Shown piece by piece: positions 18,453 to 56,768 of a DNA stretch of 64,000 bases (position 1 is its first letter; every line of letters begins with the position of its first letter). The DNA lies in assembly GCA_964484655.1 (NCBI GenBank), contig CAZAFA010000003.1:28147-92146 (forward strand), in the 5' to 3' direction. The translations under genes were made by a program, and so were the position numbers. The DNA comes from an uncultured Candidatus Saccharibacteria bacterium (lineage in GTDB: Bacteria > Patescibacteriota > Minisyncoccia > UBA6257 > 2-01-FULL-56-20). The notes beneath the pieces are model-generated. The model was not told the DNA's origin. It ran no database searches and saw only the letters and a list, made by a program, of their open reading frames with translations.

Positions 18453-18453
18453 G

Positions 18454-19867: not shown

Positions 19868-19886
19868 AGGACAGGGTCTCCCCTGC

Positions 19887-20210
19887 TCAGATCATCTTCA
19901 GCTCAACGTCCACGCCTGCAGGCAGGTTGAGGTTGCTGAGAGACTCGATGATCTTCGGGTTCGGGTTGAGAATGTCGACGAGCCGCTTATGCACGCGGAG
20001 CTCGAACTGCTCGCGCGAGTTCTTGTCGATGTTCTGCGCCCGGTTGACCGTGTACTTCCGCAGCGATACCGGCAGCGGGATCGGTCCCTTGAGGTCGGCT
20101 TCGTTACGCTCGGCAGTCTCGATGATCTGCTTGGCGGTGTTGTCGACGAGCTTGTGGTCGTACGACTGAATCCGGAGCCGGAGCTTGGGGCCTGCTGCCT
20201 CTTTCGCCAT
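19887..20210 (-). CDS. rpsJ: 30S ribosomal protein S10
   Basis: MAKEAAGPKLRLRIQSYDHKLVDNTAKQI... Confidence 0.9.
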   Translation of the reverse strand: MAKEAAGPKLRLRIQSYDHKLVDNTAKQIIETAERNEADLKGPIPLPVSLRKYTVNRAQNIDKNSREQFELRVHKRLVDILNPNPKIIESLSNLNLPAGVDVELKMI

Positions 20211-20212
20211 GG

Positions 20213-21409: not shown

Positions 21410-21487
21410 GGGTGTTCGAGTGGTAGTTGGTGATTGTTGTACGACTTAGGGAATAAGCGGCTTTCTAAAGCGGAGTTATAGTACGCG

Positions 21488-21946
21488 TCAAGCCGCCGGG
21501 GTGTCAACGTGGCGAGGCCGCATGCGCGCGCGGATGGCCGCCTCTACCTCGTGGCAGTCCCTGATTCCCGGGAAGACGATCTCCTTGGTATGGCCGCCCG
21601 CCGTGTTGATATGGAGGGTGCCGATGCCAAGCAGCCGCTCCACGAGGCTCTGGCTCACCTGGGTGTCCTGGATGCTCTCATACTCGGCGAACGTCTGGCT
21701 CGTCGAGAGCAGACGGTATTCCCGGGCGATGCCGTGCTCGTAGAGCGCGAGCCGATCAGCCCTGCGGACCACCTCGAGCATGATCAGGCCGACCGCTACC
21801 GCGGCCACGAGGAAGAGACCGAACCAGATGTTGAAATAGAAGCCTACCAGCGAGAGCAGCGCGACGAACGCCAGTCCCGCGTAGCCGCCTACATGGACCG
21901 CCGGACTCGCGTAGATGGCGCGGAGCGGGGCCTCATGCTGGTCCAT
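21488..21946 (-). CDS. Membrane protein with a bacterial PH (YdbS/YdbT-like) domain, inserted between fusA and tuf
   Basis: Two TM helices followed by a bPH-like region (...YRLLSTSQTFAEYESIQDTQVSQSLVERLLGIGTLHINTAGGHTKEIVFPGI...). Confidence 0.55.
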   Translation of the reverse strand: MDQHEAPLRAIYASPAVHVGGYAGLAFVALLSLVGFYFNIWFGLFLVAAVAVGLIMLEVVRRADRLALYEHGIAREYRLLSTSQTFAEYESIQDTQVSQSLVERLLGIGTLHINTAGGHTKEIVFPGIRDCHEVEAAIRARMRPRHVDTPAA

Positions 21947-21950
21947 GGCT

Positions 21951-24050
21951 TTAGCGGCGATCCGCGACGATGGAGGCCTCGATGTTCTTCGGCACCTCCT
22001 CGTAGTGGTCGAACTCCATGGTCGGCGCGCCGCGGCCCTGCGTGATGGAGCGGAGCTTCGTGATGTAGCCGAAGAGCTCGGAGAGCGGCACGAAGGCGTT
22101 GATCACCTTGATCATGCCGCGATCCTCGATCGAGTCCACCCGGCCGCGCTTGCCGGAGATGTCGCCGGTGACGTCGCCCATGAACTCCTGAGGAGCGCTG
22201 ACCTGCAGCTTCATGATCGGCTCGAGGAGAGCAGGATTGGCCTTCTTGGCCGCCTCCTGGAACGCCATCGAGCCGGCCATCTTGAACGCCATCTCGGACG
22301 AGTCGACGTCGTGGTAGCTGCCGTCGTAGAGGTCCACCGCGATGTCGACCATCGGGAATCCTGCGATGACGCCCCGGTCCATGGCCTCCTTCACGCCCTT
22401 CTCGATCGGGTTGATGAATTCCTGCGGGATGGCGCCGCCCTTCACGGAGTTCGTGAAGACGAAGCCGGAGCCCGGCTCGCCCGGCTTGATGCGGATCTTC
22501 GCATGGCCGTACTGGCCGCGGCCGCCGGACTGCTTGACGTATTTCCCGTCCCCTTCCGCCTCGGCGCGGATGGTCTCCTTGTACGCCACCTGCGGGCGGC
22601 CGACGTTGGCCTCGACGGAGAACTCGTCCTTCATGCGGCGCACGAGCACCTCGAGGTGCAGCTCGCCCATGCCCGCGATGAGCGTCTCGCCCGAATCCGG
22701 GTCCGAGGATACGCGGAAGGTCGGGTCCTCGTCCGCGAGGCGGCGGAGCGCGCCTCCCATCTTCTCCTGGTCAGCCTTGGTCTTCGGCTCGATCTTGATG
22801 GAGATGACCGGCTCCGGCGCGTCGATGCCGTCGAGGACGATCGGATGGGCCGGGTCGCAGAGCGTGTTGCCGGTCGTCGTGACTTTCATGCCCACGAGCG
22901 CGGCAATCTCGCCCGCGTACACCTCGCTGACCTCCTCGCGGTTGTTCGCGTGCATGCGCACGATGCGGCTCACGCGCTCCTGCTCCTCCTTGGTGGAGTT
23001 GAGGATGTACGAGCCCGTCTTGAGCGTGCCCGAGTAGACGCGGAAGAAGCAGAGGGAGCCGACGTACGGGTCGGTGGCGATCTTGAACGCGAGGCCGGTA
23101 AACGGCGCCTTGTCGTCGGTGGCACGCGTCACCTCCTGGTCGGTCTTCGGGTCCATGCCGACTACCGGCGGGATGTCGAGCGGGCTCGGCAGGTACTTGA
23201 TGACCGCGTCGAGCACGAGCTGCACGCCCTTGTTCTTGAGAGCCGAGCCGCAGAAGACCGGGACGATCTCGTTGGCGATGACGCCCTTGCGCAGCGCCTT
23301 GACGAGCGCCTCGTACGGGAGCTCCTCGCCGCCGAGGTACTTCTCCATGAGCGCCTCGTCCTGCTCGACGATCTTCTCGACGAGCATCTGGCGCCGGCGC
23401 TCCGCCTCCTCCTTGAGGTCAGCCGGGATCTCGAGGTCGACGATCTTCTCGCCGTTGTCCCCCTCGAAGCCGTACGCCTTCATCTTGAGCAGGTCGATCA
23501 CGCCCTTGTGGTCGGACTCGAGACCGATCGGCAGCTGCGCCATGACCGCGTTCTTGGTCAGGCGCTCGGTGATGGAGTCGAAGCTGCGCTCGAAGCTCGC
23601 GCCCATGCGGTCGAGCTTGTTGATGAAGCAGATGCGCGGGACGCGGTAGTCGTCCGCGTAGCGCCAGTTCGTCTCGGACTGCGGCTCGACGCCCGCGACG
23701 CCGTCGAAGACGGAGACGCCGCCGTCGAGGACGCGCAGTGAGCGCTTCACCTCGATGGTGAAGTCCACGTGGCCCGGCGTGTCGATGAGGTTGATGCGGT
23801 GCTCGTTTTCCTTGCCCGGCGCGTCGGTCGGGGTCCAGAACGCGGTCGTCGCCGCGGACGTGATGGTGATGCCGCGCTCCTGCTCCTGGGTCATCCAATC
23901 CATCGTGGCCGCGCCCTCGTGCACCTCGCCGATCTTATGGCTGACGCCGGTGTAGTAGAGGATGCGCTCGGAGACCGTGGTCTTTCCGGCGTCGATGTGC
24001 GCGAAGATGCCGATGTTGCGGATTTTCTCGAGAGGATGGGATCGAGGCAT
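21951..24050 (-). CDS. fusA: Elongation factor G
   Basis: 699 aa. [21 protein letters not shown] motifs. Confidence 0.95.
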
Positions 24051-24083
24051 ATAGGAGGTACGGGTTGATGCGGGTGCCGCTGC

Positions 24084-24551
24084 CTAGCGGGCGAAGTGGG
24101 CGAAGGCGCGGTTCGCCTCGGCCATGCGGTGCATGTCCTGCTTCTTCTTGATGGCGGCGCCGTCGTTGTTGGCCGCCGCGACGAGCTCGTCGGCGAGCTT
24201 GCGGGACATGGGCTTGCCGCTCTTCTTGCGAGCGGAATCGATGATCCAGCGGATCGCGAGCATGAAGCGGCGCGCCGGTCGCACCTCGCGGGGCACCTGG
24301 TAGTTGGCGCCGCCGACGCGGCGGGAAGCCACCTCGAGGAGCGGGCTGGCGTTCTCGATCGCCTTCTCGAAGACCTCCACCGGCTCCTGGCCGGTCTCGC
24401 TCTTCACGAGCTCGAAGGCGTCGTAGACGACCTTCTCGGCGACCGACTTCTTGCCGTCGTGCATGACGGCGTTGATGAAGCGGCCGATGTCGACCCGGTC
24501 GTAGACCTGGTCAGGGGTGTGGAACTTCTTGTAGACGCGGTTGCGACGCAT
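24084..24551 (-). CDS. rpsG: 30S ribosomal protein S7
   Basis: Sequence and str-operon order. Confidence 0.9.
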   Translation of the reverse strand: MRRNRVYKKFHTPDQVYDRVDIGRFINAVMHDGKKSVAEKVVYDAFELVKSETGQEPVEVFEKAIENASPLLEVASRRVGGANYQVPREVRPARRFMLAIRWIIDSARKKSGKPMSRKLADELVAAANNDGAAIKKKQDMHRMAEANRAFAHFAR

Positions 24552-24557
24552 TGGATT

Positions 24558-24977
24558 TTACTTGGCGGCCTTCGGGCGCTTCGCGCCGTACTTGGAGCGG
24601 CCCTGCTTGCGGTCGGTGACGCCGGCCGTGTCGAGCACGCCGCGGACGACGTGATAGCGGACGCCCGGGAGGTCCTTCACGCGGCCGCCGCGGATCATCA
24701 CGATGGAGTGCTCCTGGAGGTTGTGCTTCTCGCCGCCGATGTACGCCGTCACTTCGGTGCCGTTGCTCAGGCGGATGCGCGCGACCTTGCGGAGCGCGGA
24801 GTTCGGCTTCTTCGGGGTCTGGGTGAAAACCTTCACGCAGACGCCGCGCTTGAACGGCGCGGCGCCGTACACCGGCTTGTTATGGATGGTGTTGAAGTAG
24901 AAGCCGAAAGCAGGCGACTTGGTCTTCGCCTTCGCGGTCGTCCGCGACTTCTTGATGAGCTGATTGAGGGTCGGCAT
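24558..24977 (-). CDS. rpsL: 30S ribosomal protein S12
   Basis: [24 protein letters not shown]...[19 protein letters not shown]... Confidence 0.9.
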
Positions 24978-24990
24978 TAGTGCCCGGGCA

Positions 24991-25019
24991 TTCTGCCTAG
25001 CATTTACGAGGCCGTCAAC
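24991..25019 (-). promoter_or_regulatory. Candidate promoter of the str operon: TTGACG-17 nt-CAGAAT on the minus strand, overlapping the stop of the upstream M50 protease gene
   Basis: Hexamers read from the minus strand, 12 nt upstream of the rpsL ATG. Confidence 0.3.
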
Positions 25020-30561: not shown

Positions 30562-31066
30562 CGGCGTGCAGGGCAGCAGAGCGGATGCCGAACGCCGCCG
30601 CCGCGGCGTTCGCGGTCGCCTGGAACCCGAAGACGAAGACGAGGTAATATACAGCTGAGAATCCTGGCGGATGCACGTCCAGGAGAGACAAGCCGATGAT
30701 CACCGCCAGCGCGTAGTCGACGTGGTCGAGTACCGACCGCGTGCCCTCCTTCATGCCCAGCCGGCGCTTGACGAAGCTGCTCGCGAGAGTGCCGGCAAGC
30801 GCGAAGAGCCCGAGCATGAAGCCGAGCCTCGGATCGCCTTGCAGCCATCCCACCGTCCCGGCGCAGAGTACAATGAACGCGGAACCGGCGACGGTACGGC
30901 TGTCCCCGAGGATGCGATGGCGGCCGAGACGTCGCCCGCCATCGAGCGGCGTCGCGGGCAGGATCCGCCAGCGCGCGATCAGGAAGTACCAGAAGACGGC
31001 GGTCGCGGCGTTCGCGATCCAAGCAGGAGCACCGTACCACACGGTGCTCATGAGCAGATCGATCAT
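30536..31066 (-). CDS. CDP-archaeol synthase-like (DUF46/CarS family) CTP-transferase membrane protein
   Basis: WRILPATPLDGGRRLGRHRILGDSRT and C-terminal SFVKRRLGMKEGTRSVLDHVD match the CarS/CdsA-superfamily signature. 176 aa, 4-5 TM. Its start overlaps the LamG gene stop (ATGA). Confidence 0.55.
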   Translation of the reverse strand: MIDLLMSTVWYGAPAWIANAATAVFWYFLIARWRILPATPLDGGRRLGRHRILGDSRTVAGSAFIVLCAGTVGWLQGDPRLGFMLGLFALAGTLASSFVKRRLGMKEGTRSVLDHVDYALAVIIGLSLLDVHPPGFSAVYYLVFVFGFQATANAAAAAFGIRSAALHAASAGRRSR

Positions 31067-32718
31067 CTAGGCGTCATCGGGTCTGGGGGTTCGTCGCCGC
31101 CGCCCGGAGGAGGCGCTCCAAAGTACAAATTATGCAAGGCGATGATATCGCTCTGGCTAAGGGCCCCGTTATAGATGCGCAGCTCGTCAATGGTGATGTC
31201 ACCATCTCCCTTGTTACCGAGGCTCATATAGTCTCCGAATATTGACGTTTCGCTCGATGCAGGATGCGAAGGATTGCTCCCATACGTCTCGAAGAGCAGG
31301 ATGCCATCCTGATACACCATGCCATGCCCACCCTCGCGAACAATGGTTATCATCTTCCAACTATACGGGGCAAGCGTGTTGGTATTAGCTGAAAGCCAGG
31401 TAGCCCATCCTCCGTCAGCTTTTGACTCACCAAAAAAGGACCAACCGCTTGGGTCTCCACCGTATCCCGAGATGCGACTTCCCGCCTGTAGGCGAATATG
31501 GTAATCGACCTGCAATCCGTCGAGGTCACCCTTCTTGAAGACATTCCATTGCCGAGATGAATCAGACACGGACCCGTCCGCGTTAACGTTCCATAGGAAG
31601 TTGATACTCATATCTCCAGGGAGCTGCATGGACGGTGAATCGGGCACGGTCATTCGATTGTTTGAAAAGAGCATACCTGTGTTGCTGAAGCCGGCTGGCC
31701 ACGAATTTATGTCGAAGGTGCCATAGTTCAAATATTCACTGTTGTCTCCAGCGGTATTGCCGCTACCCTCGTCAAAAGACCAATGTCCGACTAATGTCGC
31801 GATTACTCCGCAAGTATTGTTCGCGTTGTAGATGCTGTCATTACAGTCGATGCCTACCTGCTGTATATAGCGCCGCCTGCCGTTGGTAGGAGCGGAATCT
31901 TGCAGATACATCGTACTGGCCGCAGGATAACCGTCTGCATCAGAGTCAACCTGCCAGATGTTTGTCTGAAGGATGGCACAGCCGCCGCAGAGCGCGATAC
32001 TTCCGTTCGAAAGGATCGAAATTTGCATACCGCTGTTGAAAGCGAAGTTTGCATTAAGCGTCAAGGAATTATTGATGGTAACGTTGCCGTTATCGACTCC
32101 GTCCGCTGACGATATGACGCAGGGATCGTCCTTGTCCCCAAGGGTATAGTCGCCTCCTGGTGGAATACCGCAGGCGTCGGACCAAGCGAGAACCACTGAT
32201 GAGGAATCATTACCTGCCTCGGCCGTGATGGTCGTATAGTACTTGGTGTTATGCGTGTCGTGCACGACCCACTCTCCACGATAGCGTCCGCGAATAACCT
32301 CATCTGCAAAAGCATTCTGCGTATTGGTCTTTTCGCGACCAGCTACGAAGCCGGCAAGCCGATCCGGCACAGCCTCAGCAACTCCGACATAAGCTAGATT
32401 CAACCGAACGATCTTGTTGTCAGTCTCAATGTCAGCATAGACCGCAGTGACCGGTCCGCGAGATTCGATGACCGCCTCGATGACCTGCGTGTCGCCGACG
32501 TGCACATCAGGCGGGTTGATCGTCGCCTGGACGATCTTCGGCCATACCTCGGCCGCCTGTGCGATCGAGTAAGTCTGCTCGCCGCTCGGCAGGTTCGCGA
32601 GAGGTCCCGTTGGTGCAGGTTTGTCGAGCTTGTCGTAGTAGCTTATCGGGAGGAGTGCGAGCACCGCAATCGCGAGAAGGCTCCCCGCTCCTAAGCCGAA
32701 CATGAGTTTCCTATTCAT
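31063..32718 (-). CDS. Secreted or anchored protein with a C-terminal LamG/concanavalin-like lectin domain. Locally lower GC.
   Basis: N-terminal signal/TM (MNRKLMFGLGAGSLLAIAVLALL). C-terminal LVGHWSFDEGSGNTAGDNSEYLNYGT...LRIYNGALSQSDIIAL is typical of the Laminin_G_3 domain. Asn/Ser/Gly/Cys-rich middle. Confidence 0.6.
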   Translation of the reverse strand: MNRKLMFGLGAGSLLAIAVLALLPISYYDKLDKPAPTGPLANLPSGEQTYSIAQAAEVWPKIVQATINPPDVHVGDTQVIEAVIESRGPVTAVYADIETDNKIVRLNLAYVGVAEAVPDRLAGFVAGREKTNTQNAFADEVIRGRYRGEWVVHDTHNTKYYTTITAEAGNDSSSVVLAWSDACGIPPGGDYTLGDKDDPCVISSADGVDNGNVTINNSLTLNANFAFNSGMQISILSNGSIALCGGCAILQTNIWQVDSDADGYPAASTMYLQDSAPTNGRRRYIQQVGIDCNDSIYNANNTCGVIATLVGHWSFDEGSGNTAGDNSEYLNYGTFDINSWPAGFSNTGMLFSNNRMTVPDSPSMQLPGDMSINFLWNVNADGSVSDSSRQWNVFKKGDLDGLQVDYHIRLQAGSRISGYGGDPSGWSFFGESKADGGWATWLSANTNTLAPYSWKMITIVREGGHGMVYQDGILLFETYGSNPSHPASSETSIFGDYMSLGNKGDGDITIDELRIYNGALSQSDIIALHNLYFGAPPPGGGDEPPDPMTPR

Positions 32719-32721
32719 GCT

Positions 32722-35700
32722 CTACGGGATTATGAAGCCGGTCGCCTTGTCGGTTGTGCGGTTGCTCCACGAATCAGCATCGAACCGCGGCGCGGTAAAG
32801 CGATAGCTGACCTCGACCGAGTCGCGCTTCTCGAACGGGGTAGCGATGATGGTCAGCGTGCCGTCGCCCTTCTCGTAGCGTACGCGGCCGTCGAAGCCAG
32901 GAGTCAGGAGGATTGAGGCCTTCGGTAGATGCTTGCGGATGTCGGTCACCTTGCCGAAGAGCCAGAGATCGGAGCCATGGTCCTCCTTGGCGAAGTCGAT
33001 GAGCTTCACGCAGCGGCCGTCCACGCATGAAATCTCGAGATCGCCAGCGACCTCTTCCTTCACGCCGATCATACCGGCCATGTAGGTCGCGAACTTTTCG
33101 TTTCCAATCTGATAGATCGGGTCGATAGTACCGACGTTGATCTTTCCTGCGCCATCTCCGATGGTGAGCGTATCCCCTGAGCTGGTACCGATTCGCGCGG
33201 TCGTGCCGCCGGCGCTTGCGACGTCGAGCAGGTACCCCGGCGTCTTGGTGCCGATACCCACGTTGCCGCTCGCGAAGAAGGTGTAGACTCCGCCGCCGCC
33301 GCCTGACGCGAGAGCGATCTGGTTGGTGGTCGTGCCGAGATACCCGTTGCGGAACTGGATCGCCGACCACCAACTCCCCTCACCTTCGATCGTCAGGCCG
33401 TTGTAGCCGTTGTCATAGATCCGGTTGCTGATGCTGCCGTTGCTGTGCCAGGCAAGCGAGGATGAGGTGTTCATGATCAGGCGATCCGTGGATCCGAAGT
33501 TCGGGAAGGCAGAGGCGCCTGAGATTCCAAGTACTAAGTTTCCGCTCTGCGTGATGCTGGCGATTTCGTTGCCGCCTGTGTTGAAGATACCGAGGCGATT
33601 TGCTGGAAGGCTCACGTCGTTGCTGCCACGGTTATCGACGAACCAGGTGTTCGAATTGCTCGTGAAGTTGATGCCGGCGATACCAGATCCCGTGCTCGCG
33701 GCTATCCGCGCCTGGCTGCTGCCGGTTGTGCCGACGCTCAAGAGGTTACCGCTGGCGGTTGTACTCAGCGTCACAGTGCCTGGGAACGTGTAGTTCCCGC
33801 CGCCGGTGTTCGCGCCGAAACTTCCCGAAGAAACGTTGGCTGCCGCGATCGTGCCACTGCCGCTGGCTGCGGTTGTCTGTGTCGTGCCGTCCGGGAAACG
33901 GAATCCGCCCGACGAGCTATAGATGGTACCAGCGACTGTAAGCTTGTAGCCAGGCGTCGTTGTGGCAATACCTACGTTTCCGTTCGCTTGTATCTTCATC
34001 AAATTACCGCCACCCGCGCTTGTGAACTGCCAGTATTCATTAGTTCCACAGCCGGTCGAACCAAAGGTAACTTGCTGCGCTCCTGCTATGTACTGGGCGA
34101 ACATACCGCAGGAATCAGCAGCATTATTCGCGAAATAAAGTGCCCCACTTCCAATATCAAGGCGTCCACTTGGTGTAGCGATGCCAATACCGACGCTCCC
34201 GTCTGATCGAACGGTGAGGCGCTGCGTGCCACCAGTTGAAAGACTGATGGTGTCGCCTCCGCTCCAATACAAACCTGTATTGGTATCACCTATCGCGGCC
34301 AGCGACGGTGCTGCCGCGGATCCGTTCGTCATCCCAACCGTGCCGTCGGCCATGACGCCAAAGTTGGTGCCCGTTCCACCGACACCTCCATCACCCGCGG
34401 GACCGACGCAGAAGCGATATGTGCCACCATAGCATCCTATGCCGACCTGCTGACCGAGGAAATAGGTATCCCAGCCACCGCCTGCGCCGATCACCGTGTT
34501 GCTCGGATTGTTGCTGTTACCGATGACAAGTCTGCCGAGCGGCTGATTCGATACCGCATTGAGCGTGGTGAAGCCGGCACCTCCTGTTGCACTCACGTTG
34601 AAGTAGTAATTACCGCTGGCATCACCGTTGAAGCGTACACTGCCAGGGAAGGTATAAATGCCGCCGCCAGTATTTGCCCCAAACTGTCCGGATGAAACAT
34701 TTGCGGCAGACATTGTTCCCGCTGCCGCCGTCGTCTGAGTCGTACCATCGGGGAACCGGAACCCACCTGAGGAGCTATGAATAGTGCCTACTACTTGGAG
34801 CTTGTACTGGGGATCGCTGGTGCCTATGCCGACATTACTAGTGCTCCAGTCAATATTGAGAAGATCGACCCCGGCCGTCTCGTCCCGAATGATGAAATCG
34901 TAGTAACGCCCGGTCACTGCAGCTCCGCCGTACGGAGTAAGGATGCTGTACGTCTTTGTGTTGGAGCCGTTACCTGACGCGATCCGCATCGCAGCATCGT
35001 TCTGGTACGTATTTGATCCAAGCTGGAGTAAGGATCCGGGGCTTGTCGTTCCGATACCCGTGTTGCCGTTAGCCAGAATTGTCATACGTACGTTCGCGTT
35101 CGTGCCAAAACTCAAGGGATGATTCGAATATGTGCCAAGAATCATGCCCGCTGGTGCGCCCCACCAACCGATCTCATGCGCGAGAACGCGTGCATCGATA
35201 GCTGCAGTACGAACTGATAGCTTCGCGTGGCTGGCGCCAAGGATATCGAGTACGCGGCTCCAACCCTCACTATTCTCTGGCGAAGTGGTCCCCACTACGA
35301 CATGCGCAGGAAAGGCGTAATTTCCGCCTCCAGTGTTAGCGCCGAACGAACCAGCGGAGATGTTTGCTGCTGCCATAGTACTACTTCCAGAAACAGCTGC
35401 CGTCGACTGTGTCGTACCGTCAGGGAACATGATGTAGCCCGCGCTAGTGATCGAAAGAAGTCTGGTGCCCGCGCTATTCTGGGTATCGATGATGTTTGCC
35501 GACTGGCTGGCTGCTCCGCGCACAACCATGACTGGCTGCGTCGCGGTCCAGGCATTGCCGAAGAAGTTCGCTGCCGACTGCGCGCTGCCGACGCCGAAGT
35601 AGGAGCGCATATTGGCCGTGTCATAACCGAAATTCGTGCCAAGGATACCGGTCGTGGTAATTCGGAACTGTTCTGTTGAATTTGGCCTGAATACAAACGG

Positions 35701-36354
35701 AAGTGAAGCATTAGTATCAAACCAGAGTCCGGTGCCTCCGTATCCGAAGATGGTTCCGACCGGGGATCCGTTACCAACAAAGCTAATTGTAGGATAGTAG
35801 CCCCCTGCAGGAGCATAGAGTGTCAGACCCGGGTTTACTGAGGACACGTCGGCATAGATACGACTACCGCCCAAACTCGTCCTGTTAATATCGAGATTAT
35901 ATGAGGGAGCGGTACCGATACCGACGCTTGAAGGGAAGGTATAGTTCCCGCCACCCGTGTTCGCACCGAACTGGCCCGAGGAGACGTTCGGGGCTGACAT
36001 GGTGCTGCCCAGCGCGGTCCCGTTCACAGTCAGCGTCCCCTGGACGTTGGTCGTGCCGTCGTTGCGCACCCAGAAGAGCGAGGATCCGGCGGAGTTGTAG
36101 GCGTGGACGGCATACGCCGCGGAGGTCGTGCCGCTGCCGTAGACGTTCAGGCGGTTCGCCGACGCGACCGTGCTCGATCCGATAGCGACGTTGTTACTCG
36201 CATCGGTCGCGATTGCGCCGCTGCCGACGCCGCCAGAACCGGAAGGCCCGATGAACGCGTCAGCGACGCTGATCGCGATCACGCCCGCTGCGATGAGGCC
36301 GGATACGCCGAGCGCGATCAGCCCGAACGCTGGTGATGACTGCCGGAGGCGCAT
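32722..36354 (-). CDS. Giant (1210 aa) Gly/Ser/Thr/Asn-rich cell-surface repeat protein with fibre-like, beta-helical-looking repeats
   Basis: N-terminal signal/TM (FGLIALGVSGLIAAGVIAISVADA). Four copies of an (M/I)SAANVSSG(Q/S)FGANTGGGNYTFPG motif and three copies of FRFPDGTTQTTAA. A compact C-terminal domain of about 110 aa. Confidence 0.6.
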   Translation of the reverse strand: MRLRQSSPAFGLIALGVSGLIAAGVIAISVADAFIGPSGSGGVGSGAIATDASNNVAIGSSTVASANRLNVYGSGTTSAAYAVHAYNSAGSSLFWVRNDGTTNVQGTLTVNGTALGSTMSAPNVSSGQFGANTGGGNYTFPSSVGIGTAPSYNLDINRTSLGGSRIYADVSSVNPGLTLYAPAGGYYPTISFVGNGSPVGTIFGYGGTGLWFDTNASLPFVFRPNSTEQFRITTTGILGTNFGYDTANMRSYFGVGSAQSAANFFGNAWTATQPVMVVRGAASQSANIIDTQNSAGTRLLSITSAGYIMFPDGTTQSTAAVSGSSTMAAANISAGSFGANTGGGNYAFPAHVVVGTTSPENSEGWSRVLDILGASHAKLSVRTAAIDARVLAHEIGWWGAPAGMILGTYSNHPLSFGTNANVRMTILANGNTGIGTTSPGSLLQLGSNTYQNDAAMRIASGNGSNTKTYSILTPYGGAAVTGRYYDFIIRDETAGVDLLNIDWSTSNVGIGTSDPQYKLQVVGTIHSSSGGFRFPDGTTQTTAAAGTMSAANVSSGQFGANTGGGIYTFPGSVRFNGDASGNYYFNVSATGGAGFTTLNAVSNQPLGRLVIGNSNNPSNTVIGAGGGWDTYFLGQQVGIGCYGGTYRFCVGPAGDGGVGGTGTNFGVMADGTVGMTNGSAAAPSLAAIGDTNTGLYWSGGDTISLSTGGTQRLTVRSDGSVGIGIATPSGRLDIGSGALYFANNAADSCGMFAQYIAGAQQVTFGSTGCGTNEYWQFTSAGGGNLMKIQANGNVGIATTTPGYKLTVAGTIYSSSGGFRFPDGTTQTTAASGSGTIAAANVSSGSFGANTGGGNYTFPGTVTLSTTASGNLLSVGTTGSSQARIAASTGSGIAGINFTSNSNTWFVDNRGSNDVSLPANRLGIFNTGGNEIASITQSGNLVLGISGASAFPNFGSTDRLIMNTSSSLAWHSNGSISNRIYDNGYNGLTIEGEGSWWSAIQFRNGYLGTTTNQIALASGGGGGVYTFFASGNVGIGTKTPGYLLDVASAGGTTARIGTSSGDTLTIGDGAGKINVGTIDPIYQIGNEKFATYMAGMIGVKEEVAGDLEISCVDGRCVKLIDFAKEDHGSDLWLFGKVTDIRKHLPKASILLTPGFDGRVRYEKGDGTLTIIATPFEKRDSVEVSYRFTAPRFDADSWSNRTTDKATGFIIP

Positions 36355-47669: not shown

Positions 47670-47685
<16 letters not shown>
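47212..47685 (-). CDS. Hypothetical membrane protein (up to 157 aa, start uncertain)
   Basis: Hydrophobic ORF upstream of rpsI. No family assigned. Confidence 0.4.
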
Positions 47686-48060
<375 letters not shown>

Positions 48061-48074
<14 letters not shown>

Positions 48075-48408
48075 TGAAAGAAAGCTGGTTCATGCGGCGC
48101 GCGTTCAGGAAGTTCTTGGGGAGCATGCGGCGGACGGCCTCGCGGATGACCTTCTCCGGGCTCTTGGCGAAGGCCTCGGCATACGTGCGCTCCTTGAGGT
48201 GGCCCATGTAGCCGGTGTGGCGGTAGTAGACCTTCGTCTCTTCCTTGGTGCCGCCGATCTCGATCTTGGACGGGTTCTCGATCACGACCGTGTCCTCGGT
48301 GACGCGGTTCGGCTGGTAGTCCGGGCGATGCTTGCCCTGCAGGATCTTAGCGGCTTCCGTCGCGAGACGGCCGAGGCGCTTCCCTGATGCGTCGATGCGG
48401 TACTCCAT
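48061..48408 (-). CDS. rplM: 50S ribosomal protein L13
   Basis: MEYRIDASGKRLGRLATEAAKILQGKH... Confidence 0.85.
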
Positions 48409-48410
48409 GG

Positions 48411-48764
48411 TTATACGAACTCGATGATGGCACGGGAGGCGCCGTCGCGCTTGCGCGCGCCCATGAGCTTCTGGATGCGGAGGTAGCCCCCCGGACGCTC
48501 CTTGTAGCGGGGCGCGATGTCCTCGACGAGGCGGCGCGCCGTCTCGGCGTTGGCGAGACGTGAGATCACCTCGCGGCGGCTGGCGAGATCCCCGCGGCGG
48601 GCGATGCTCACGAGGCGCTCGACCATGGGACGGATGGCCTTAGCGCGCGTCTCCGTGGTCTCGATGCGGCCCGAGCGGATCAGGTTGCTCGCGAGGCCGC
48701 GCATGAAAGCCACGCGCTGACCCTTCAGGCGATGGAACTTGCGGCCGACGCGGCGATGCTGCAT
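48411..48764 (-). CDS. rplQ: 50S ribosomal protein L17
   Basis: MQHRRVGRKFHRLKGQRVAFMRGLASNLI... Confidence 0.9.
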   Translation of the reverse strand: MQHRRVGRKFHRLKGQRVAFMRGLASNLIRSGRIETTETRAKAIRPMVERLVSIARRGDLASRREVISRLANAETARRLVEDIAPRYKERPGGYLRIQKLMGARKRDGASRAIIEFV

Positions 48765-48794
48765 GGGATGCGGTTACGTGATTGCCGGGGTACC

Positions 48795-49499
48795 TTACTC
48801 GGTATCTGCGGACTTGGCCAGGATGCGCTCGAAGTGCTCCCGGAGGACCTTGGCGGCATGCTCGACGGCTGCCGACGGGGCGACCGTGCCGTCCGTCTCG
48901 ACGTCGAGCTTCACGCGGTTGAAGTCCGTCCGTTTGCCGACGCGCATGTCCTCGACGGACACGTTCGCCGAGACGACCGGGGAGAAGATGCCGTCCACGC
49001 CGATGGCGCCGATCGGGAGCTTCTCCTGGTGATGCACCTCGCTCGGGACGTAGCCCATGCCGCGCTCGACCGTGATCTCGACGTTGAGGTCGGCCGACTT
49101 CGCGGTCAGGTGCCCGAGGACGAGGTCGGGGTTCGCGAGCGTGACGTCGCTGGTGAGCTTGATGTCGGCGCCGGTGATCGGGCCCTCACCCTTCTTGTGC
49201 AGGACGAGCACGACCGGCTCCTGGCTGTGCGAGGCGAAGCGGAGCTTCTTGAAGTTGAGCGAGAACTCCACGAGGTCCTCCTTGAGGCCAGGGAAGGTCG
49301 AGAACTCGTGGTTCGCGTTCTTCACCTTGATCATGGTGACGGCAGCGCCCGGGAGCGAGGTCAGGAGCACGCGGCGCAGCGCCGTGCCGATGGTGAGGCC
49401 GTAGCCAGCCTCGAGACCCTCAATGGCGAAGGAGCCGCGGGAGGCGTCCTCGGAAAGGGTCTTGAGTACGACGTGGTCGCTGAGGTGTGAGGTATCCAT
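48795..49499 (-). CDS. rpoA: DNA-directed RNA polymerase alpha subunit, N-terminal domain only (234 aa, no alpha-CTD)
   Basis: Alpha-NTD motifs (...IEGLEAGYGLTIGTALRRVLLTSLPGAAVT...). The ORF stops 30 nt before rplQ. No linker or CTD is encoded. Confidence 0.8.
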   Translation of the reverse strand: MDTSHLSDHVVLKTLSEDASRGSFAIEGLEAGYGLTIGTALRRVLLTSLPGAAVTMIKVKNANHEFSTFPGLKEDLVEFSLNFKKLRFASHSQEPVVLVLHKKGEGPITGADIKLTSDVTLANPDLVLGHLTAKSADLNVEITVERGMGYVPSEVHHQEKLPIGAIGVDGIFSPVVSANVSVEDMRVGKRTDFNRVKLDVETDGTVAPSAAVEHAAKVLREHFERILAKSADTE

Positions 49500-49518
49500 G
49501 GGAATAAGTATAGAGGGA

Positions 49519-50136
49519 CTACTTGGAGAATGATTCGACGACGAGCGGGATCTGGAACGTGACCTCGATGTCGCTCGGGAGCGCCGTGACCTGCGCAGCC
49601 AGGTCGCCCGCCTTAACCTGGAGCCAGTACGGGGACTCGTGCTTCTCGAGCGAGCCCTTGAGCTCGCGGAACGCGGCGCGCTCGCGCGAGTTCGGGTAGA
49701 CCGCGATGACGTCGCCGACCTTCACGACGAAGTTCGGGGACTTGGTGCGCACGCCGTTGACGGCGATATGACCGTCGAGCACGTACTTGCGCGCGACCGA
49801 GCGTCCCGGCGCGATGCCGGCGCGGTAGACGGCGTTGTCGAGCCGACGCTCGAGGAGCTCCACCAGCTTGCGGCTGACGTCTCCCTTCGCCTTGCTCGCG
49901 AGCTTCATGACCGAGCGGAGGCCGCCTTCGTCGATGCGGTACGTGAGCTTCACCTTCTGCTTCTCTTGGAGCTGGAGGCCGAAGTCGGACACGTTCCGGC
50001 GGCGGCGGCTGTTGCCGTGCTGGCCGGGCTTGTACGGGCGCCGATGGAGCGCCGACTTCGGGCCGATGGAGCGCTCCGCCTTGAGCTGCAGCGATTCGCC
50101 GAGCGCGCGTTCCTTCCTTTGCTTGGGTCCCATCAT
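49519..50136 (-). CDS. rpsD: 30S ribosomal protein S4
   Basis: Sequence and alpha-operon order. Confidence 0.9.
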   Translation of the reverse strand: MMGPKQRKERALGESLQLKAERSIGPKSALHRRPYKPGQHGNSRRRRNVSDFGLQLQEKQKVKLTYRIDEGGLRSVMKLASKAKGDVSRKLVELLERRLDNAVYRAGIAPGRSVARKYVLDGHIAVNGVRTKSPNFVVKVGDVIAVYPNSRERAAFRELKGSLEKHESPYWLQVKAGDLAAQVTALPSDIEVTFQIPLVVESFSK

Positions 50137-50148
50137 GTCTTTGGTGTG

Positions 50149-50565
50149 TTATACGCGGCGGACTTTCTTCGGCTTCGGACCGTTGTGCGGGACCGGCGTG
50201 ACGTCCTTGAATGAGGCGATGTTGAAGCCCTGCGCGACGAACGAGCGCATGGCGGAATCGCGTCCTCCCCCGCTTCCCTTCACGAGGATCTCGAGGTCGG
50301 TGATCTTCTTCTGCTTCAGCTTCTCGGTGAGGGTCGCCACGATCTTCGACGAGGCGAATGGGGTCGCCTTCTTCGGGCCGCTGAACCCGAGGCTGCCCGC
50401 GGTCGCCCAGGCGATCACCCCGCCCTTGAGGTCCGTGACGGTCACCACCGTGTTGTTGTACGAGGCGTTGATATAGACACGCGCCGAGCCGCCCTTCTTC
50501 GGGACGCGGACCGGAGCGGCCTGCTCCTGGTTCTCGGCGACGGGGGTGGTGATCTCTTCTGCCAT
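50149..50565 (-). CDS. rpsK: 30S ribosomal protein S11
   Basis: Sequence and alpha-operon order. Confidence 0.9.
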   Translation of the reverse strand: MAEEITTPVAENQEQAAPVRVPKKGGSARVYINASYNNTVVTVTDLKGGVIAWATAGSLGFSGPKKATPFASSKIVATLTEKLKQKKITDLEILVKGSGGGRDSAMRSFVAQGFNIASFKDVTPVPHNGPKPKKVRRV

Positions 50566-50569
50566 GGGA

Positions 50570-50950
50570 TTACTTCAGTGCGACCTTCCGCTTGCCGCTG
50601 CCTGCGGTCTTGCGGACGTTGCCGCGGACGGTACGGGAGTTGGTCTTGGTGCGCTGGCCGCGCGTCGGGAGGCGGCGGGAATGCCTGCTGCCACGATAGG
50701 TGCCCAGGTCCTTGAGGCGCTGGACGTTCGTCTTCACGTACTGGCGGAGCTCGCCCTCCACGCGCACGTTCTCGAGGCTGTTCTGGATCTTCGTGATCTC
50801 GTCGGTGGTCAGGTCCGCGGCCCGCTTCTTCGGGTCGATCTTGGTCGATTCCACGATGCGCGTCGCCGTCACCGGACCGATGCCGTACACGTACGTCAGC
50901 GCGATGGTGACGCGCTTGTTGTCCGGGATGTTGACGCCGAGGAGACGCAT
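50570..50950 (-). CDS. rpsM: 30S ribosomal protein S13
   Basis: MRLLGVNIPDNKRVTIALTYVYGIGPVTA... Confidence 0.9.
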   Translation of the reverse strand: MRLLGVNIPDNKRVTIALTYVYGIGPVTATRIVESTKIDPKKRAADLTTDEITKIQNSLENVRVEGELRQYVKTNVQRLKDLGTYRGSRHSRRLPTRGQRTKTNSRTVRGNVRKTAGSGKRKVALK

Positions 50951-50971
50951 GGGTGTGTAGTGAGGTGTTGG

Positions 50972-51088
50972 CTAGCCCTGACGCTGCTTATGCTTGGGGT
51001 TCTTCTTGCAGATGACGAAAAGGACGCCCTCGCGCTTAACCACCTGGCAGGCGTTGCACATCGTCTTAATGGAGCTGCGTACCTTCAT
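50972..51088 (-). CDS. rpmJ: 50S ribosomal protein L36 (38 aa, zinc ribbon)
   Basis: Hand-translated [38 protein letters not shown]. Below the ORF-track length cutoff. Confidence 0.8.
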
Positions 51089-51103
51089 GGATGGTCAGGG
51101 GGG

Positions 51104-51337
51104 TCAGTGACGCCGCACGATGCGGCCGCGCTTACGGTCCGGCGCCAAGACCACGGCGACGCGGTCTCCGGCCAGAACCCGGATACGGTTGATCTTCATC
51201 CTTCCGGCGATCTTGGCGATCACGGGATGCTGGATGCCGGGAATCTCAATGAGGAACTCGAGGCCCGGCAGCGCCTCCTTCACGATACCGTCCACCGCTT
51301 CTGCGGGGACATTGATCGCGAGTCGGGGACGAGGCAT
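51104..51337 (-). CDS. infA: Translation initiation factor IF-1
   Basis: ORF 51104..51496 trimmed to MPRPRL... S1-like ...VIAKIAGRMKINRIRVLAGDRVAVVLAPDRKRGRIVRR. Confidence 0.75.
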   Translation of the reverse strand: MPRPRLAINVPAEAVDGIVKEALPGLEFLIEIPGIQHPVIAKIAGRMKINRIRVLAGDRVAVVLAPDRKRGRIVRRH

Positions 51338-51387: not shown

Positions 51388-53076
51388 CTACTTGATCTCC
51401 AGGCGTACCTTCGCGGGGTCGGCCGGCAGCGTGAAGCGCCAGAAGGGCCTGACCGACACCGAGCCCTCCTTGAACTGCTCCTGCGAGCGTAGCCATTCGG
51501 CCGCCTCGCCGCGGCTCTTGCCCGCCACCTCCGCGCGGATGCTTTCCTCGGTCGCCTGGCCGATCACGCTCCCCCGGACGGTCACCTTGAAGGTGAGGCG
51601 GCCGTTGGCGAGATCCGGCTGCACGTCGCTGTAACCGACCTCGTAGCTGCGGAACGTCGCTGGGTAGTTGATGCCCTTCTCGGACGTGGCGCGCTTGAGA
51701 AGGAGGGCCTTGAGGTCGTCCTCCTTGAAGGCGAGGCCGCGGAGCGTCGCCTGGCCGACGACATTGAAGTTGCCTGACGCGTCCACCTCCTTGTTGACCG
51801 TCAGCTGACGCTGCTCGATCTGGATCGCACCCTCGATGAGCGCGAGCGCCTCCGGCTTCGAGGAGAGCAGCTTCGTCTTGAACGTGCCGATGAGGATGTC
51901 GTTGATCTTCGCGAGCGCGCCTTCGGCATCGGCGTCGGTCACGACCCGCTCGCTCGGCGGCGTGGTCGACTGCGCAGGCTTGGCCTCGGGCGCCGCCGGC
52001 TTGCTCAGAACGCCGTAGAAGAGGTTCGCTTTCGGCGAGCCCGCGAGGCCCGGGACCGTCAGCCGCTCGCCGTCGCTGCTTCCCGTGAGGACCGCCTCTG
52101 AATCGGGTGTCACCTCGACCGACGCCGTGCCCGGCGTCAGCTTGTCGCCGTCCTTCTTCGCCGCCGGGATCGCGACGGCCGTCGCGGCGCGGAATACGCC
52201 CGCCTTGCCCTGGAAGCGGGTCCGTACCACGAACGTCTCCGCCTCGAGGCTCTCGTTGTAGACGGTCACCTTCGGACGCGCGCCGGCCGGCACGCTGCTC
52301 GCGCCTGGCTCGCCGGTCGCCGGGAACGGCTGCGCGACATTCAGGGGCGGGCTCGTCTCGAAGAGCTGGCCCGGGATCGAGCCCGTCTCGACGGTCGTCG
52401 TCGTGACCGACGTCGCGGCGACCACGGTGCCCGAATACTCCCAGGGCGTCTCAGCCAGCGTCACCGCTACCGATCCCGAGCGCATGAAACCCTCGCCGAT
52501 GCCAACGACTAGCGCGATGGCGATCAGGGCGGCGGCGATGGCGCGCGGGCGCGAGAGGCGCATGCGGCGCTCCTTGCGCGGCCGGTCCTCGACCGTCACC
52601 GGCTGCGCCTCGTACGAAGGGCGCGCGGCGACCGGCGTCGGCACCGGATGGTCGTGCGGCGGCAGCGGGTTCTCTTCGGCGTCGTCGTCATGCACGATCA
52701 CCGGCTGCAGCTCCGCGCGATGCGGGCGTGGCGCGTGCTCCGCATGCCGCGCGGCGACCGCGGGATGACGCGTCGTGTGCTTGGTCGCCTGCACGCCGTC
52801 GAGCGCCAGATGGCGCTTGTCAGCGCGGAAGAACGGATGCACCGTCTCGAGATGCGCCGCGTGCGCGAGCGAGAGCAGCTCCTCGTCCACCGACTCGATG
52901 GCGACGGCGATGCCGCGCTCGGCGGCCAGGTCGCCGATCTGGGAAAGCTGCTCGCGGTCGGCGAGCGCAGATCCGCGCGGCGCGACCACCGTCAGGGCGC
53001 TCTCATTGAACGCGTTGAGTGCTTCGATGACGCGTTCAGCGGTCTCGTCGCGCGTCAGGATGAGTTTTCGTGCCAT
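51388..53076 (-). CDS. Hypothetical 562-aa protein with a central TM segment and Ala/Pro/Thr-rich linkers
   Basis: ORF only. No recognisable catalytic motif. Lies between infA and the mraY-proximal gene. Confidence 0.45.
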   Translation of the reverse strand: MARKLILTRDETAERVIEALNAFNESALTVVAPRGSALADREQLSQIGDLAAERGIAVAIESVDEELLSLAHAAHLETVHPFFRADKRHLALDGVQATKHTTRHPAVAARHAEHAPRPHRAELQPVIVHDDDAEENPLPPHDHPVPTPVAARPSYEAQPVTVEDRPRKERRMRLSRPRAIAAALIAIALVVGIGEGFMRSGSVAVTLAETPWEYSGTVVAATSVTTTTVETGSIPGQLFETSPPLNVAQPFPATGEPGASSVPAGARPKVTVYNESLEAETFVVRTRFQGKAGVFRAATAVAIPAAKKDGDKLTPGTASVEVTPDSEAVLTGSSDGERLTVPGLAGSPKANLFYGVLSKPAAPEAKPAQSTTPPSERVVTDADAEGALAKINDILIGTFKTKLLSSKPEALALIEGAIQIEQRQLTVNKEVDASGNFNVVGQATLRGLAFKEDDLKALLLKRATSEKGINYPATFRSYEVGYSDVQPDLANGRLTFKVTVRGSVIGQATEESIRAEVAGKSRGEAAEWLRSQEQFKEGSVSVRPFWRFTLPADPAKVRLEIK

Positions 53077-53091
53077 GTGCTGGTAAGTTGG

Positions 53092-54219
53092 TTAGATGCC
53101 TTCCGCGGTGCCGAGCCAGGCGATGCGCCTGCGCAGCCACGCGTTCAGGCCGCTATAGCGCTCACTATAATAGAACTCCGCGAACGCGGCCAGGGCGAGC
53201 ACGCTCGCCTCGCCGTCGAACTCGAGCCCGGTGGCGCGCAGCGCGGCCTGCGCATCCAGATCCTCGAGGACGACGCTCCCCTCGGTGGACGGGATGCGGA
53301 TATCGCTCGCGACCGGCAGCGGACCCCTAGCGCGCGCCTTGCGCAGCTCCTCGTCGAGCGCGGCTCGCGGCGCAGCGATCGCCTCGTCGACAGCACGGCG
53401 CACCGACCCGGCAGTCAATCCGGCAACGTGCACCGCGAGCAGGTCGGCGGCAGCCCTGCGCGAGAGGCCCCAGCGCAGCTCGAGTTCGCGCGCGAGGTCG
53501 TTCGGCGACCAGGAAAGCGGACTGCGCGCGATCTCGCGCACCGCGTCGCGGCGCGCATCGGCCGCGAGCACGACCGGATTCCCCTGCGCGAGCAGCACCG
53601 CCGGCGCAACGGCGCTGTGCCCGGCGACCAGCGACCACGCCGGGTCTGCGAAATACGGCGCCGGCGCCGCTTCGCGCGCGCGCTCGAATGTCTCGCGCGC
53701 GACGAAGCGCACGGTCACGTCGAGCTCCACCGGGCTCCCGGTCAGGTCGCTCGGGTCGAGGACCTCGGCGCCGTTGACGCGCACCGAGTCAACGCGGAAC
53801 GAGGCGAGGACCGCGTCTATCGGATCGACGCCGAGCTGAGCGGCGACGCGCGGGCGCTGCTCCGCCCAGAGCGAGACCTGCAGCTTCTTGAGAGCCTCCT
53901 GGAACTCGGCCAGGTGCACCCGCATCAGCGGATGCTCGCGCTCGAAGGACACGGGCAGCGAGAGCGTGACCACGCCGAGCGCCGGACTCGCGACCACCGC
54001 CGGCGGCAGGTAGCGCGCGATGGCGGGGTGCATCGGCCGGAGCCGGTCCCACGGAACGTCCGTTTCCGACTCGAGGAGCTGCAGGCGATGGCCGTCGCGC
54101 GCTATGGCGAACAGGTACGCGTCGGCGGACGGCCCGTTCGGCACGAGCACGAGCGCGCGGTCGCGCCTGTTCGTTGCGAGGCGCGCGTGCCGGATGATGC
54201 TGTGCAGCGTACGTATCAC
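53092..54219 (-). CDS. Hypothetical 375-aa protein (GTG start) directly downstream of mraY
   Basis: ORF MIRTLHSIIRHARLATNRRDRALVLVPNGPSADAYLFAIARDG... No confident family. Confidence 0.45.
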   Translation of the reverse strand: MIRTLHSIIRHARLATNRRDRALVLVPNGPSADAYLFAIARDGHRLQLLESETDVPWDRLRPMHPAIARYLPPAVVASPALGVVTLSLPVSFEREHPLMRVHLAEFQEALKKLQVSLWAEQRPRVAAQLGVDPIDAVLASFRVDSVRVNGAEVLDPSDLTGSPVELDVTVRFVARETFERAREAAPAPYFADPAWSLVAGHSAVAPAVLLAQGNPVVLAADARRDAVREIARSPLSWSPNDLARELELRWGLSRRAAADLLAVHVAGLTAGSVRRAVDEAIAAPRAALDEELRKARARGPLPVASDIRIPSTEGSVVLEDLDAQAALRATGLEFDGEASVLALAAFAEFYYSERYSGLNAWLRRRIAWLGTAEGI

Positions 54220-55267: not shown

Positions 55268-56187
55268 GGGTTCTGCTTGAGTGTCTTGAGGAGCCTGCGG
55301 GTATCGCCGAAGCGATCGTCGCTCCCGAGCACGATCAGGGCCTCGATCCGCGGCCCGACCTGGAAGAGGGAGAGGAGGTTGCCTCGCGCCTCGTCCGTGT
55401 AGCCCGTCTTGCCGCCCAGGAAACCCGGGTCGCGGACGAGCTCGTGCGTCGCGTAGGCAGTATACGCCACCCCGGTGCCCTGCGCATGCACGGTGACCGA
55501 CCCGCGCCGGGTCCATTGGAAAACCTCAGGGAACTCGGCATGTATCCGCTGCACGAGCGTCAGGAGCTCGCGCCCCGTGCTCTTGTTGCCGGGCGAGAGG
55601 CCGGACGCGTCCGCGTACGCGGTGCGCTGCAGGCCCCAGGCGCGCGCGGCCGCGTTCATCTCCCCGAGGAAGCGCTCGCGGCCGACGTGCGCGGCGAGGC
55701 TCTCGGCCGCCTCGTTCGAGGACGCGACGAGCATGACGGCGAGGACGTCCCGCATGGCGAACGTCTCGCCTGCGGGCAGGACGGGCCGCGACGGATTCCC
55801 GCCGGGCACCGGGACGATGACGATCGGCTCGTCGGCCGCGATGTCGCGCAGCGCGATCGTCGCGGTCATGAGCTTGGTCAGCGAGGCCATCGGCCACGCA
55901 TCCGTGCTCCTGCGGCTCGCGAGCACCTGGTCGGCGGCGAGGTCGCCGGCCACGAAGATGCGCGCGCCGATGACGTCGGGCGGCGTGCTCGACGCGGTGC
56001 TGGTCGCCGTGCTCGTGGCCGTCGCGACCGTGGAGGTCGCCTCCGGGACCTGCGCCGTGGAGGTCGCCGCGACCGGATCGCCCGGCTGCTCCGCGCGGCG
56101 CGCGGCCGCGCTCATCGTGCCGGCGATCGCGATCACCAGGAGCAGGGCGGCTCCGCCGCCGAAGAGCGCCGCCTGACGCTGCGTCAT
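55264..56187 (-). CDS. D-alanyl-D-alanine carboxypeptidase (PBP5-like, peptidase S11)
   Basis: Signal/TM. SxxK (ASLTKLMTA), SxN (SSNEAA), KTG (GGKTGYT). Confidence 0.8.
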   Translation of the reverse strand: MTQRQAALFGGGAALLLVIAIAGTMSAAARRAEQPGDPVAATSTAQVPEATSTVATATSTATSTASSTPPDVIGARIFVAGDLAADQVLASRRSTDAWPMASLTKLMTATIALRDIAADEPIVIVPVPGGNPSRPVLPAGETFAMRDVLAVMLVASSNEAAESLAAHVGRERFLGEMNAAARAWGLQRTAYADASGLSPGNKSTGRELLTLVQRIHAEFPEVFQWTRRGSVTVHAQGTGVAYTAYATHELVRDPGFLGGKTGYTDEARGNLLSLFQVGPRIEALIVLGSDDRFGDTRRLLKTLKQNP

Positions 56188-56768
56188 GCCCCCGGTGCTT
56201 CCTGCGCCTGCTCGGCCGGAGCCGGCTCGCGCGCGGCGAGGCTGCGCGCGAGGAGCGCGCCGAGCTCCTCGAAGTCCGGGAGGTCCTCCCGCGCCGTGAT
56301 ACCCATCTCGCGGAGCAGCTCCGGCGTGACCTGGTACTGGTGCTCGCCCTTCCCCTGCCGCGTTCGCTCGACGAGCCCGCGCACCATGAGCGTGCGGAGG
56401 CTCAGCGCCGAGCTGACGCCGCGGACGTGATCGATGACGCTGCGCGGCACCGGGCCGAAGTACGCTACCAGCGCGAGCGTCTCCACCGCTGCCGGACCGA
56501 GGTCCTGGCTCATCTCGCCGCGCAGCAGCTCGGCGACCGCCGCCTCGTGCCGCGGATGCGTCACCAGCTGCGCGCTCGCGCCGTGGCGCAGCAGCGCGAG
56601 CCCGCGGGCTGCATCTGACTCCAGGCCGGCCCCGAGCTCGTCGACCGCGGCTTCGACCTCGCCGAACGAGGCGCCCGTGAGCGCCGCGAGCCGCTCGAGC
56701 GGCATCGGCTCGCCGTAGGCGAACAGCAGCGCCTCAACCGCCCCGATCAGATCACGCTGCGCTCCCAT
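56184..56768 (-). CDS. scpB: Segregation and condensation protein B
   Basis: ...GAVEALLFAYGEPMPLERLAALTG... Two winged-helix domains. Confidence 0.8.
   Translation of the reverse strand: MGAQRDLIGAVEALLFAYGEPMPLERLAALTGASFGEVEAAVDELGAGLESDAARGLALLRHGASAQLVTHPRHEAAVAELLRGEMSQDLGPAAVETLALVAYFGPVPRSVIDHVRGVSSALSLRTLMVRGLVERTRQGKGEHQYQVTPELLREMGITAREDLPDFEELGALLARSLAAREPAPAEQAQEAPGA

Follow-up and report, generated by a model that had tools for sequence, protein, structure and literature searches.

The rpoA locus

The window, the whole 64-kb stretch of DNA that was analysed, carries rpoA within the array infA-rpmJ-rpsM-rpsK-rpsD-rpoA-rplQ-rplM-rpsI, which places the gene in the canonical alpha-operon position (rpsM-rpsK-rpsD-rpoA-rplQ). 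The features of this array are as follows.

51104-51337, reverse strand: infA ORF
50972-51088, reverse strand: rpmJ ORF
50570-50950, reverse strand: rpsM ORF
50149-50565, reverse strand: rpsK ORF
49519-50136, reverse strand: rpsD (ribosomal protein S4; PF00163 and PF01479), the canonical gene upstream of rpoA
48795-49499, reverse strand: rpoA, 234 aa, ATG start, TAA stop; complete alpha-NTD (assembly) domain only
48795-48797, reverse strand: the TAA that ends rpoA, at the point where the inter-domain linker begins in E. coli alpha
48765-48794, reverse strand: rpoA-rplQ spacer, 30 nt, which cannot encode a linker or CTD and holds another in-frame TAA
48411-48764, reverse strand: rplQ (ribosomal protein L17; PF01196, E=4e-31), the canonical gene downstream of rpoA
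48061-48408, reverse strand: rplM, after rplQ; PF00572 (L13) on the identical gene of L005
47670-48074, reverse strand: rpsI, after rplM; PF00380 (S9) on the syntenic gene of L012

For infA, rpmJ, rpsM and rpsK, the Pfam labels were those of the identical L005 genes and the syntenic L012 genes. The rpsD gene, on the upstream side, ends 19 nt before rpoA. A sequence-only reading of this DNA had described an alpha-subunit ORF of 234 aa that ends 30 nt before rplQ, and the coordinates of the ORF and the spacer agree with that description in every detail.

Several other features of the window were recorded. The infA-rpmJ-rpsM-rpsK-rpsD-rpoA-rplQ genes normally follow adk/map. Here an rpsL-rpsG-fusA-tuf-S10-spc-secY-adk array lies at 9302-25000 (reverse strand), about 37 kb from the infA-to-rplQ part (47670-51337, reverse strand), and the usual ribosomal super-operon is thus broken in this genome. 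Directly upstream of infA, at 51388-54219 (reverse strand), are two ORFs of 562 and 375 aa without a Pfam match. Their counterparts occupy the same position in L005, where they are identical, and in the 75%-identical relative L012, where they are 574 and 381 aa long; both are conserved genes of unknown function. The GC content dips at 31063-36354 (reverse strand) to about 0.56-0.60, against 0.66 for the window. The dip contains two large ORFs, one of 551 aa with a Laminin_G_3/ConA-like lectin domain and one of 1210 aa with no significant domain, which may encode surface proteins or be horizontally acquired. The transcript-cleavage factor GreA is complete at 7101-7562 (reverse strand; PF03449 and PF01272), indicating that this accessory transcription factor is retained. 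No rRNA operon was found in the 64-kb window.

RpoA is a complete alpha-NTD without linker or CTD

Pfam identified two domains in the window RpoA. PF01193 (RNA_pol_L, the Rpb3/Rpb11-type dimerisation domain) matched residues 29-223 (E=3.3e-18) and PF01000 (RNA_pol_A_bac, the RpoA/Rpb3 insert domain) matched residues 57-173 over its full profile, 1-119 (E=7.4e-25). By contrast, PF03118 (RNA_pol_A_CTD, helix-hairpin-helix) gave no match in this protein even at E<=1. The NCBIfam rpoA equivalog models, which have 298-344 positions, matched over about positions 2-231 only. The resulting scores fell below the full-length threshold of TIGR02027 (216.6 against a cut-off of 227.8) and below that of NF003519 (238.1 against 277).

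Structural comparison gave the same end point. Solved alpha subunits in the PDB aligned to residues about 12-233 of the window RpoA, and residues 22-231 of E. coli alpha aligned to residues 20-226, indicating that the window protein ends where the E. coli inter-domain linker starts. An AlphaFold model built with 120 homologs as input had a pLDDT of 89.9 and a long last helix at residues 208-227. Foldseek matched this model to solved alpha-NTDs with TM scores of 0.80-0.89 and an rmsd of about 2-4 A over some 225 residues, the matches being alpha chains of E. coli, Thermus, Mycobacterium and Bacillus RNA polymerase, including the E. coli alpha-NTD crystal structure 1bdf. The window alpha subunit is clearly of the bacterial type and consists of a complete alpha-NTD without linker or CTD. 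The sequence-only reading had also placed the linker and the alpha-CTD outside both rpoA and the flanking 30 nt; the missing PF03118 match and the in-frame TAA in the spacer bear this out.

CTD-less alpha subunits are found in many relatives

We compared the window RpoA with its closest database relatives. The best 120 matches among 5.8 billion clusters (90% identity) were all 234-263 aa long and contained PF01000 and PF01193 only; a CTD profile searched against these 120 clusters found no match better than E=2.1. Alignment with relatives, suggested earlier as a check, thus marks the absence of the CTD as a lineage trait. Named members among these best 120 clusters were called 'Patescibacteria group bacterium' or 'Candidatus Paceibacterota bacterium', and over 30 representative clusters the names were no finer than 'Paceibacterota', 'Patescibacteria group' and 'Giovannonibacteria'.

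A classification set was assembled from the best 150 representatives at 50% identity and 16 nearer matches, and 160 of these proteins had a complete NTD. The CTD was present in 90 of them and genuinely absent from 44, whilst 19 were frameshifted or chimeric junk and 7 were ambiguous. At the DNA level, rpsD-rpoA-rplQ without a CTD was found in L002 (RpoA of 255 aa) and L011 (303 aa). Other CPR have kept the domain: L003, a MAG labelled Saccharibacteria, encodes a 320-aa RpoA with a clear helix-hairpin-helix CTD, and a 326-aa RpoA from Giovannonibacteria (P0127) also retains it. In an un-bootstrapped neighbour-joining tree of the NTD (a single gene, 207 columns), CTD-less forms fell into about 13 clades amid CTD-bearing ones. 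This scatter could reflect repeated loss, or simply the poor resolution of a single-gene tree of 207 columns.

Most CTD-less proteins end in a short basic tail. Outside the 234-aa clade, the tails had a median length of 22 residues (range 7-67), and 93% of 128 CTD-less representatives, with the 234-aa clade left out, had at least five Lys or Arg among the last 15 residues. The Lys/Arg tail is a trait seen in most CTD-less members here, not a published criterion. Lys-tailed CTD-less RpoA was found at L002:10001-10768 and L011:2501-3412, in both cases with rplQ directly next to rpoA, and in proteins P0017-P0120, P0123, P0183, P0198 and P0263. An AT-hook-like [KR]GRP motif was present in 14 of the 144 CTD-less proteins scored, for example in the ending ...KKRGRPKKQD.

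The window RpoA and its 15 closest clusters, by contrast, have no Lys/Arg tail, and the net charge over their final 11 residues is -2 to 0. The closest 16 cluster representatives (90%-identity clusters, 75-100% identical to the query) are all 234-235 aa long, and each ends with the motif [ED][KR][IL]LAK[ST]xxxE, 11 residues beyond F223. High GC was considered as the origin of the tail-less state and rejected. The correlation between tail length and a GC proxy of the NTD was only weak (Spearman -0.34), and tails are present in other GC-rich relatives, indicating that GC content alone does not explain the absence of the tail. The 234-aa clade has lost even this replacement for the CTD.

We tentatively suggest that many Paceibacterota/Patescibacteria lineages lack the alpha-CTD, perhaps after several losses, with the Lys/Arg tail as a substitute and with the high-GC clade of the window lacking the tail as well. 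This wider picture is possible rather than probable. If it is true, no bacterium in nature would have a polymerase more stripped down on the alpha side than that of the window clade, in which alpha would convey nothing from promoters or activators.

An RNA polymerase without the alpha-CTD

Bacterial RNA polymerase as described in textbooks has an alpha-CTD, which recognises UP elements, touches sigma region 4 and is targeted by class I activators, CRP among them. The domain is essential for viability in E. coli, and promoters in a bacterium that lacks it would be expected to be organised differently. The RNA polymerase of the organism studied here, an uncultured ultra-small bacterium of the Candidatus Paceibacterota (Parcubacteria, CPR/Patescibacteria), very probably does lack the alpha-CTD, as the sequence-only reading had proposed, with an intact and functional rpoA from which the lineage has deleted the linker and CTD. 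The gene encodes only the NTD, its stop is conserved and no CTD was found in the sequence searched; this assessment draws on 64 kb of this genome and on up to 20 kb around rpoA in relatives.

The 234-aa alpha-NTD is expected to form a dimer that nucleates assembly of beta and beta', as happens in other bacteria. Residues R42, R43, L45, L46 and K84 are invariant across 120 homologs, and by alignment offset we take them to include the equivalents of E. coli R45, L48 and K86, which are beta-binding determinants. The invariance of R43, L46 and K84, together with purifying selection on the gene, suggests that the protein joins an alpha2-beta-beta' core enzyme.

Without an alpha-CTD, such a polymerase would read no UP elements, would not be recruited by class I (alpha-CTD-contacting) activators and would make no alpha-CTD contact with sigma region 4. 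Promoter recognition would rest on sigma-promoter contacts, and regulation would act via other surfaces or through repression. Judged by composition, the basic tails of the sister clades, occasionally AT-hook-like (KRGRPKK), might make non-specific or minor-groove contacts with upstream DNA and so act as a minimal substitute for the alpha-CTD; the window clade would manage without even that. A mechanism of this kind is plausible because one report notes a conspicuous lack of full-length CRP/FNR regulators (c-f-HTH plus ligand-binding domain) in the CPR-containing clade (PMC12531629), which agrees with the minimal regulatory repertoire suggested by the sequence-only reading. Most likely, transcription here proceeds with neither UP-element recognition nor class I activation.

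Regulatory capacity might also have been kept in a different form, if an unrelated protein, or some other surface of RNA polymerase or sigma, has assumed the function of the CTD. The sister clades consistently swap the CTD for a basic tail, which suggests that a DNA-proximal function is not freely dispensable, and the same operon region also includes conserved genes that are specific to CPR and have no known function. However, none of these observations yields a candidate protein, and the 234-aa clade has neither tail nor CTD, a state kept across divergence to 75% identity. We consider such a takeover unlikely.

Search for a free-standing alpha-CTD

If the alpha-CTD were encoded by a separate gene elsewhere in the genome and joined the polymerase in trans, the short rpoA would be one half of a split gene. 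We searched all six frames of the 64-kb window with an alpha-CTD profile of three sequences and found nothing better than E=0.36. This best match was the ORF at 56184-56768 (reverse strand), whose L005 counterpart is annotated SMC_ScpB. A larger profile of about 90 CTDs gave a best E of 8.9 across the six frames of the window, L001, L002 and L005, the relatives being covered over 11-20 kb around rpoA. A separate alpha-CTD ORF, the finding that would have overturned the earlier claim, was thus absent from the window and from the rpoA flanks of these three relatives or copies.

Databases do contain short CTD proteins. A profile of 33 CPR CTDs retrieved 599 candidates, 45 of them short PF03118-only proteins. 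Three of the 45 were located, on long contigs, and all three adjoin rplQ at the rpoA locus of other lineages, either immediately after the part of rpoA that encodes the NTD or, for one of them, at the edge of a contig. These three are fragments of the rpoA locus rather than free-standing genes. No CTD gene away from the rpoA locus was found among the sequences reached, namely the window, the flanks of the relatives and the three located proteins.

In a MAG labelled Paceibacterota, NCBI also lists an 84-aa 'alpha C-terminal domain-containing protein' (P0278) beside an RpoA of 220 aa that has only the NTD. In L007, a CPR contig with 29% GC whose clustered relatives are labelled 'Candidatus Paceibacterota' by NCBI, the 220-aa and 84-aa parts are joined by an in-frame TGA and form a normal 309-aa rpoA at L007:1342-2271. 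In-frame TGA codons occur in five of the seven genes of this contig:

L007:1342-2271, 3-344, 502-1122, 2635-2991 and 2996-3511: genes with in-frame TGA

TGA is thus recoded in this lineage, and a full-length rpoA was annotated with the wrong code; reading under table 11 splits it into HRV32416.1 (the 220-aa 'RpoA') and HRV32417.1 (84 aa). The apparent split rpoA is an annotation artefact of TGA recoding. Stop-codon recoding is not at play in the window because it encodes a tRNA-Trp(CCA) and its rpoA ends in TAA.

The CTD search of this genome covered the 64-kb window only, which together with P0278 and the 45 short database proteins leaves a split gene some room. Against it, the 220 plus 84 aa case comes from the TGA-recoded L007 lineage, the short CTD proteins that were located all sit beside rplQ, and no frame of the window, L001, L002 or L005 holds a CTD-like ORF. 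A CTD supplied in trans is very unlikely.

The short rpoA is an intact gene

The rpoA stop is conserved. Protein and DNA across the stop and spacer are identical in L005 and L006, two independent assemblies (runs SRR11845634 and SRR11845619). In L001, a GTDB species representative titled Candidatus Paceibacterota bacterium, RpoA is 80% identical and 234 aa long, with a TAA at the same codon and 11 nt to rplQ. A 75%-identical RpoA (P0016), also 234 aa, stops at the corresponding position, lies in a conserved gene order and occurs on six contigs, of which four measure 0.2-1 Mb. Between the window and L001, dN was 0.159 and dS 0.672, a ratio of about 0.24, indicating that rpoA is under purifying selection.

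A decaying pseudogene or redundant paralog, with a second full-length alpha doing the work, would look different. Two alpha paralogs in one bacterium are possible, as PDB 6wmp shows (compare Francisella). Here, however, the gene has a dN/dS of about 0.24 and invariant core residues, it sits in the canonical operon position, an NTD profile found a single copy in each of the window, L001, L002 and L005, and the nearest database homologs all lack the CTD. We regard this explanation as extremely improbable.

That an error in sequencing or assembly, or a frameshift, has shortened a normal protein of about 320 aa is a reasonable prior for a MAG, the more so with 19 of 160 complete-NTD representatives (50% identity) being frameshifted or chimeric junk, but it found no support here and has next to no chance of being right: the DNA is identical in three assemblies (the window, L005 and L006), the stop position is kept in the 80%- and 75%-identical relatives, only 30 nt with a second in-frame stop precede rplQ, and no downstream frame encodes a CTD. 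Frameshift or readthrough of rpoA was likewise ruled out by the second TAA in the spacer and the lack of any frame with a CTD. No error that would restore about 320 aa, the outcome that the earlier reading had named as refuting it, turned up in these comparisons. The window rpoA is an intact gene, and the absence of the CTD is a conserved lineage trait rather than an error.

Comparison with known systems

The alpha-like assembly subunits of archaea (Rpo3, subunit D) and eukaryotes (Rpb3/AC40) contain PF01193 and PF01000 and no CTD, the same domain set as the window alpha. Rpo3 and Rpb3 heterodimerise with Rpo11 (subunit L) and Rpb11, respectively; unlike these heterodimer partners, the window protein is of the bacterial type, and its match to the RpoD model NF001988 was marginal (E=0.0015 over 40 residues).

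E. coli alpha truncated near residue 235 is not known to support viability as the sole alpha. Such engineered subunits (Igarashi & Ishihama; Hayward et al., 1991) have the same NTD/linker end point as the window alpha but are laboratory constructs, whereas the window alpha is natural and the only alpha detected. As summarised in PMC8321222, E. coli alpha truncations showed that RNA polymerase can assemble and carry out basal transcription without the CTD, whereas UP elements and activators depend on it.

Loss of the alpha-CTD in Parcubacteria was stated in a single sentence in 2021 (PMC8321222; preprint 10.1101/2020.09.07.285775), citing Nelson & Stegen 2015 and naming Parcubacteria beside Hodgkinia, Tremblaya and microalgal (Euglena) chloroplasts. 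These Parcubacteria resemble the window in belonging to the same phylum-level group and in keeping the RpoA NTD without the CTD. Nelson & Stegen 2015 (PMC4508563; reference 68 of PMC8321222) list rpoA as a core gene, and no mention of RNA polymerase or a CTD was found in the text or supplements searched. Full-text literature searches found no dedicated study of CTD-less alpha in Parcubacteria. Unlike the present analysis, PMC8321222 and its preprint give no distribution within CPR, no Lys-rich tails and no tail-less 234-aa clade.

The alpha subunits of Hodgkinia and Tremblaya are, like the window alpha, mostly NTD only, and loss of UP-element recognition has been proposed for them (PMC8321222). 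These are intracellular insect endosymbionts with extremely reduced genomes and eroding RNA polymerase subunits, some Hodgkinia having no recognised rpoA (PMC8321222). The window differs in its 66% GC, in a conserved NTD under purifying selection and in having a relative (P0016) on contigs of 0.2-1 Mb. The Euglena chloroplast rpoA, described as lacking the alpha-CTD by Sheveleva et al. 2002 as cited in PMC8321222, is CTD-less like that of the window but is an organellar gene.

The window rpoA is thus a well-supported new instance of a feature that was noted before but barely documented. As the loss had already been stated for Parcubacteria, the novelty of the finding is limited; the literature searched seems to contain no description of how the trait is distributed across CPR, of the Lys-rich tails that replace the CTD or of the clade without a tail. 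A large and widespread bacterial group that naturally lacks the alpha-CTD offers a natural experiment on the need for this domain. It also implies that promoters and regulators are organised there in ways that depart from the E. coli paradigm. Everything said here beyond gene content is inferred, and the finding is of moderate interest to transcription specialists. There is also a practical consequence: tools that use full-length rpoA models or PF03118 as a universal marker will under-score such genomes.

Two database titles looked inconsistent with their sequences. L004 (CAYZUJ010000006.1) is titled 'uncultured Neisseria sp.', yet it has 29% GC and its RpoA NTD is 41% identical to the query. 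L002 (CAYPDQ010000009.1) is titled 'Saccharibacteria', yet its RpoA is of the CTD-less, Lys-tailed type, whilst L003, also titled 'Saccharibacteria', has a full-length RpoA.
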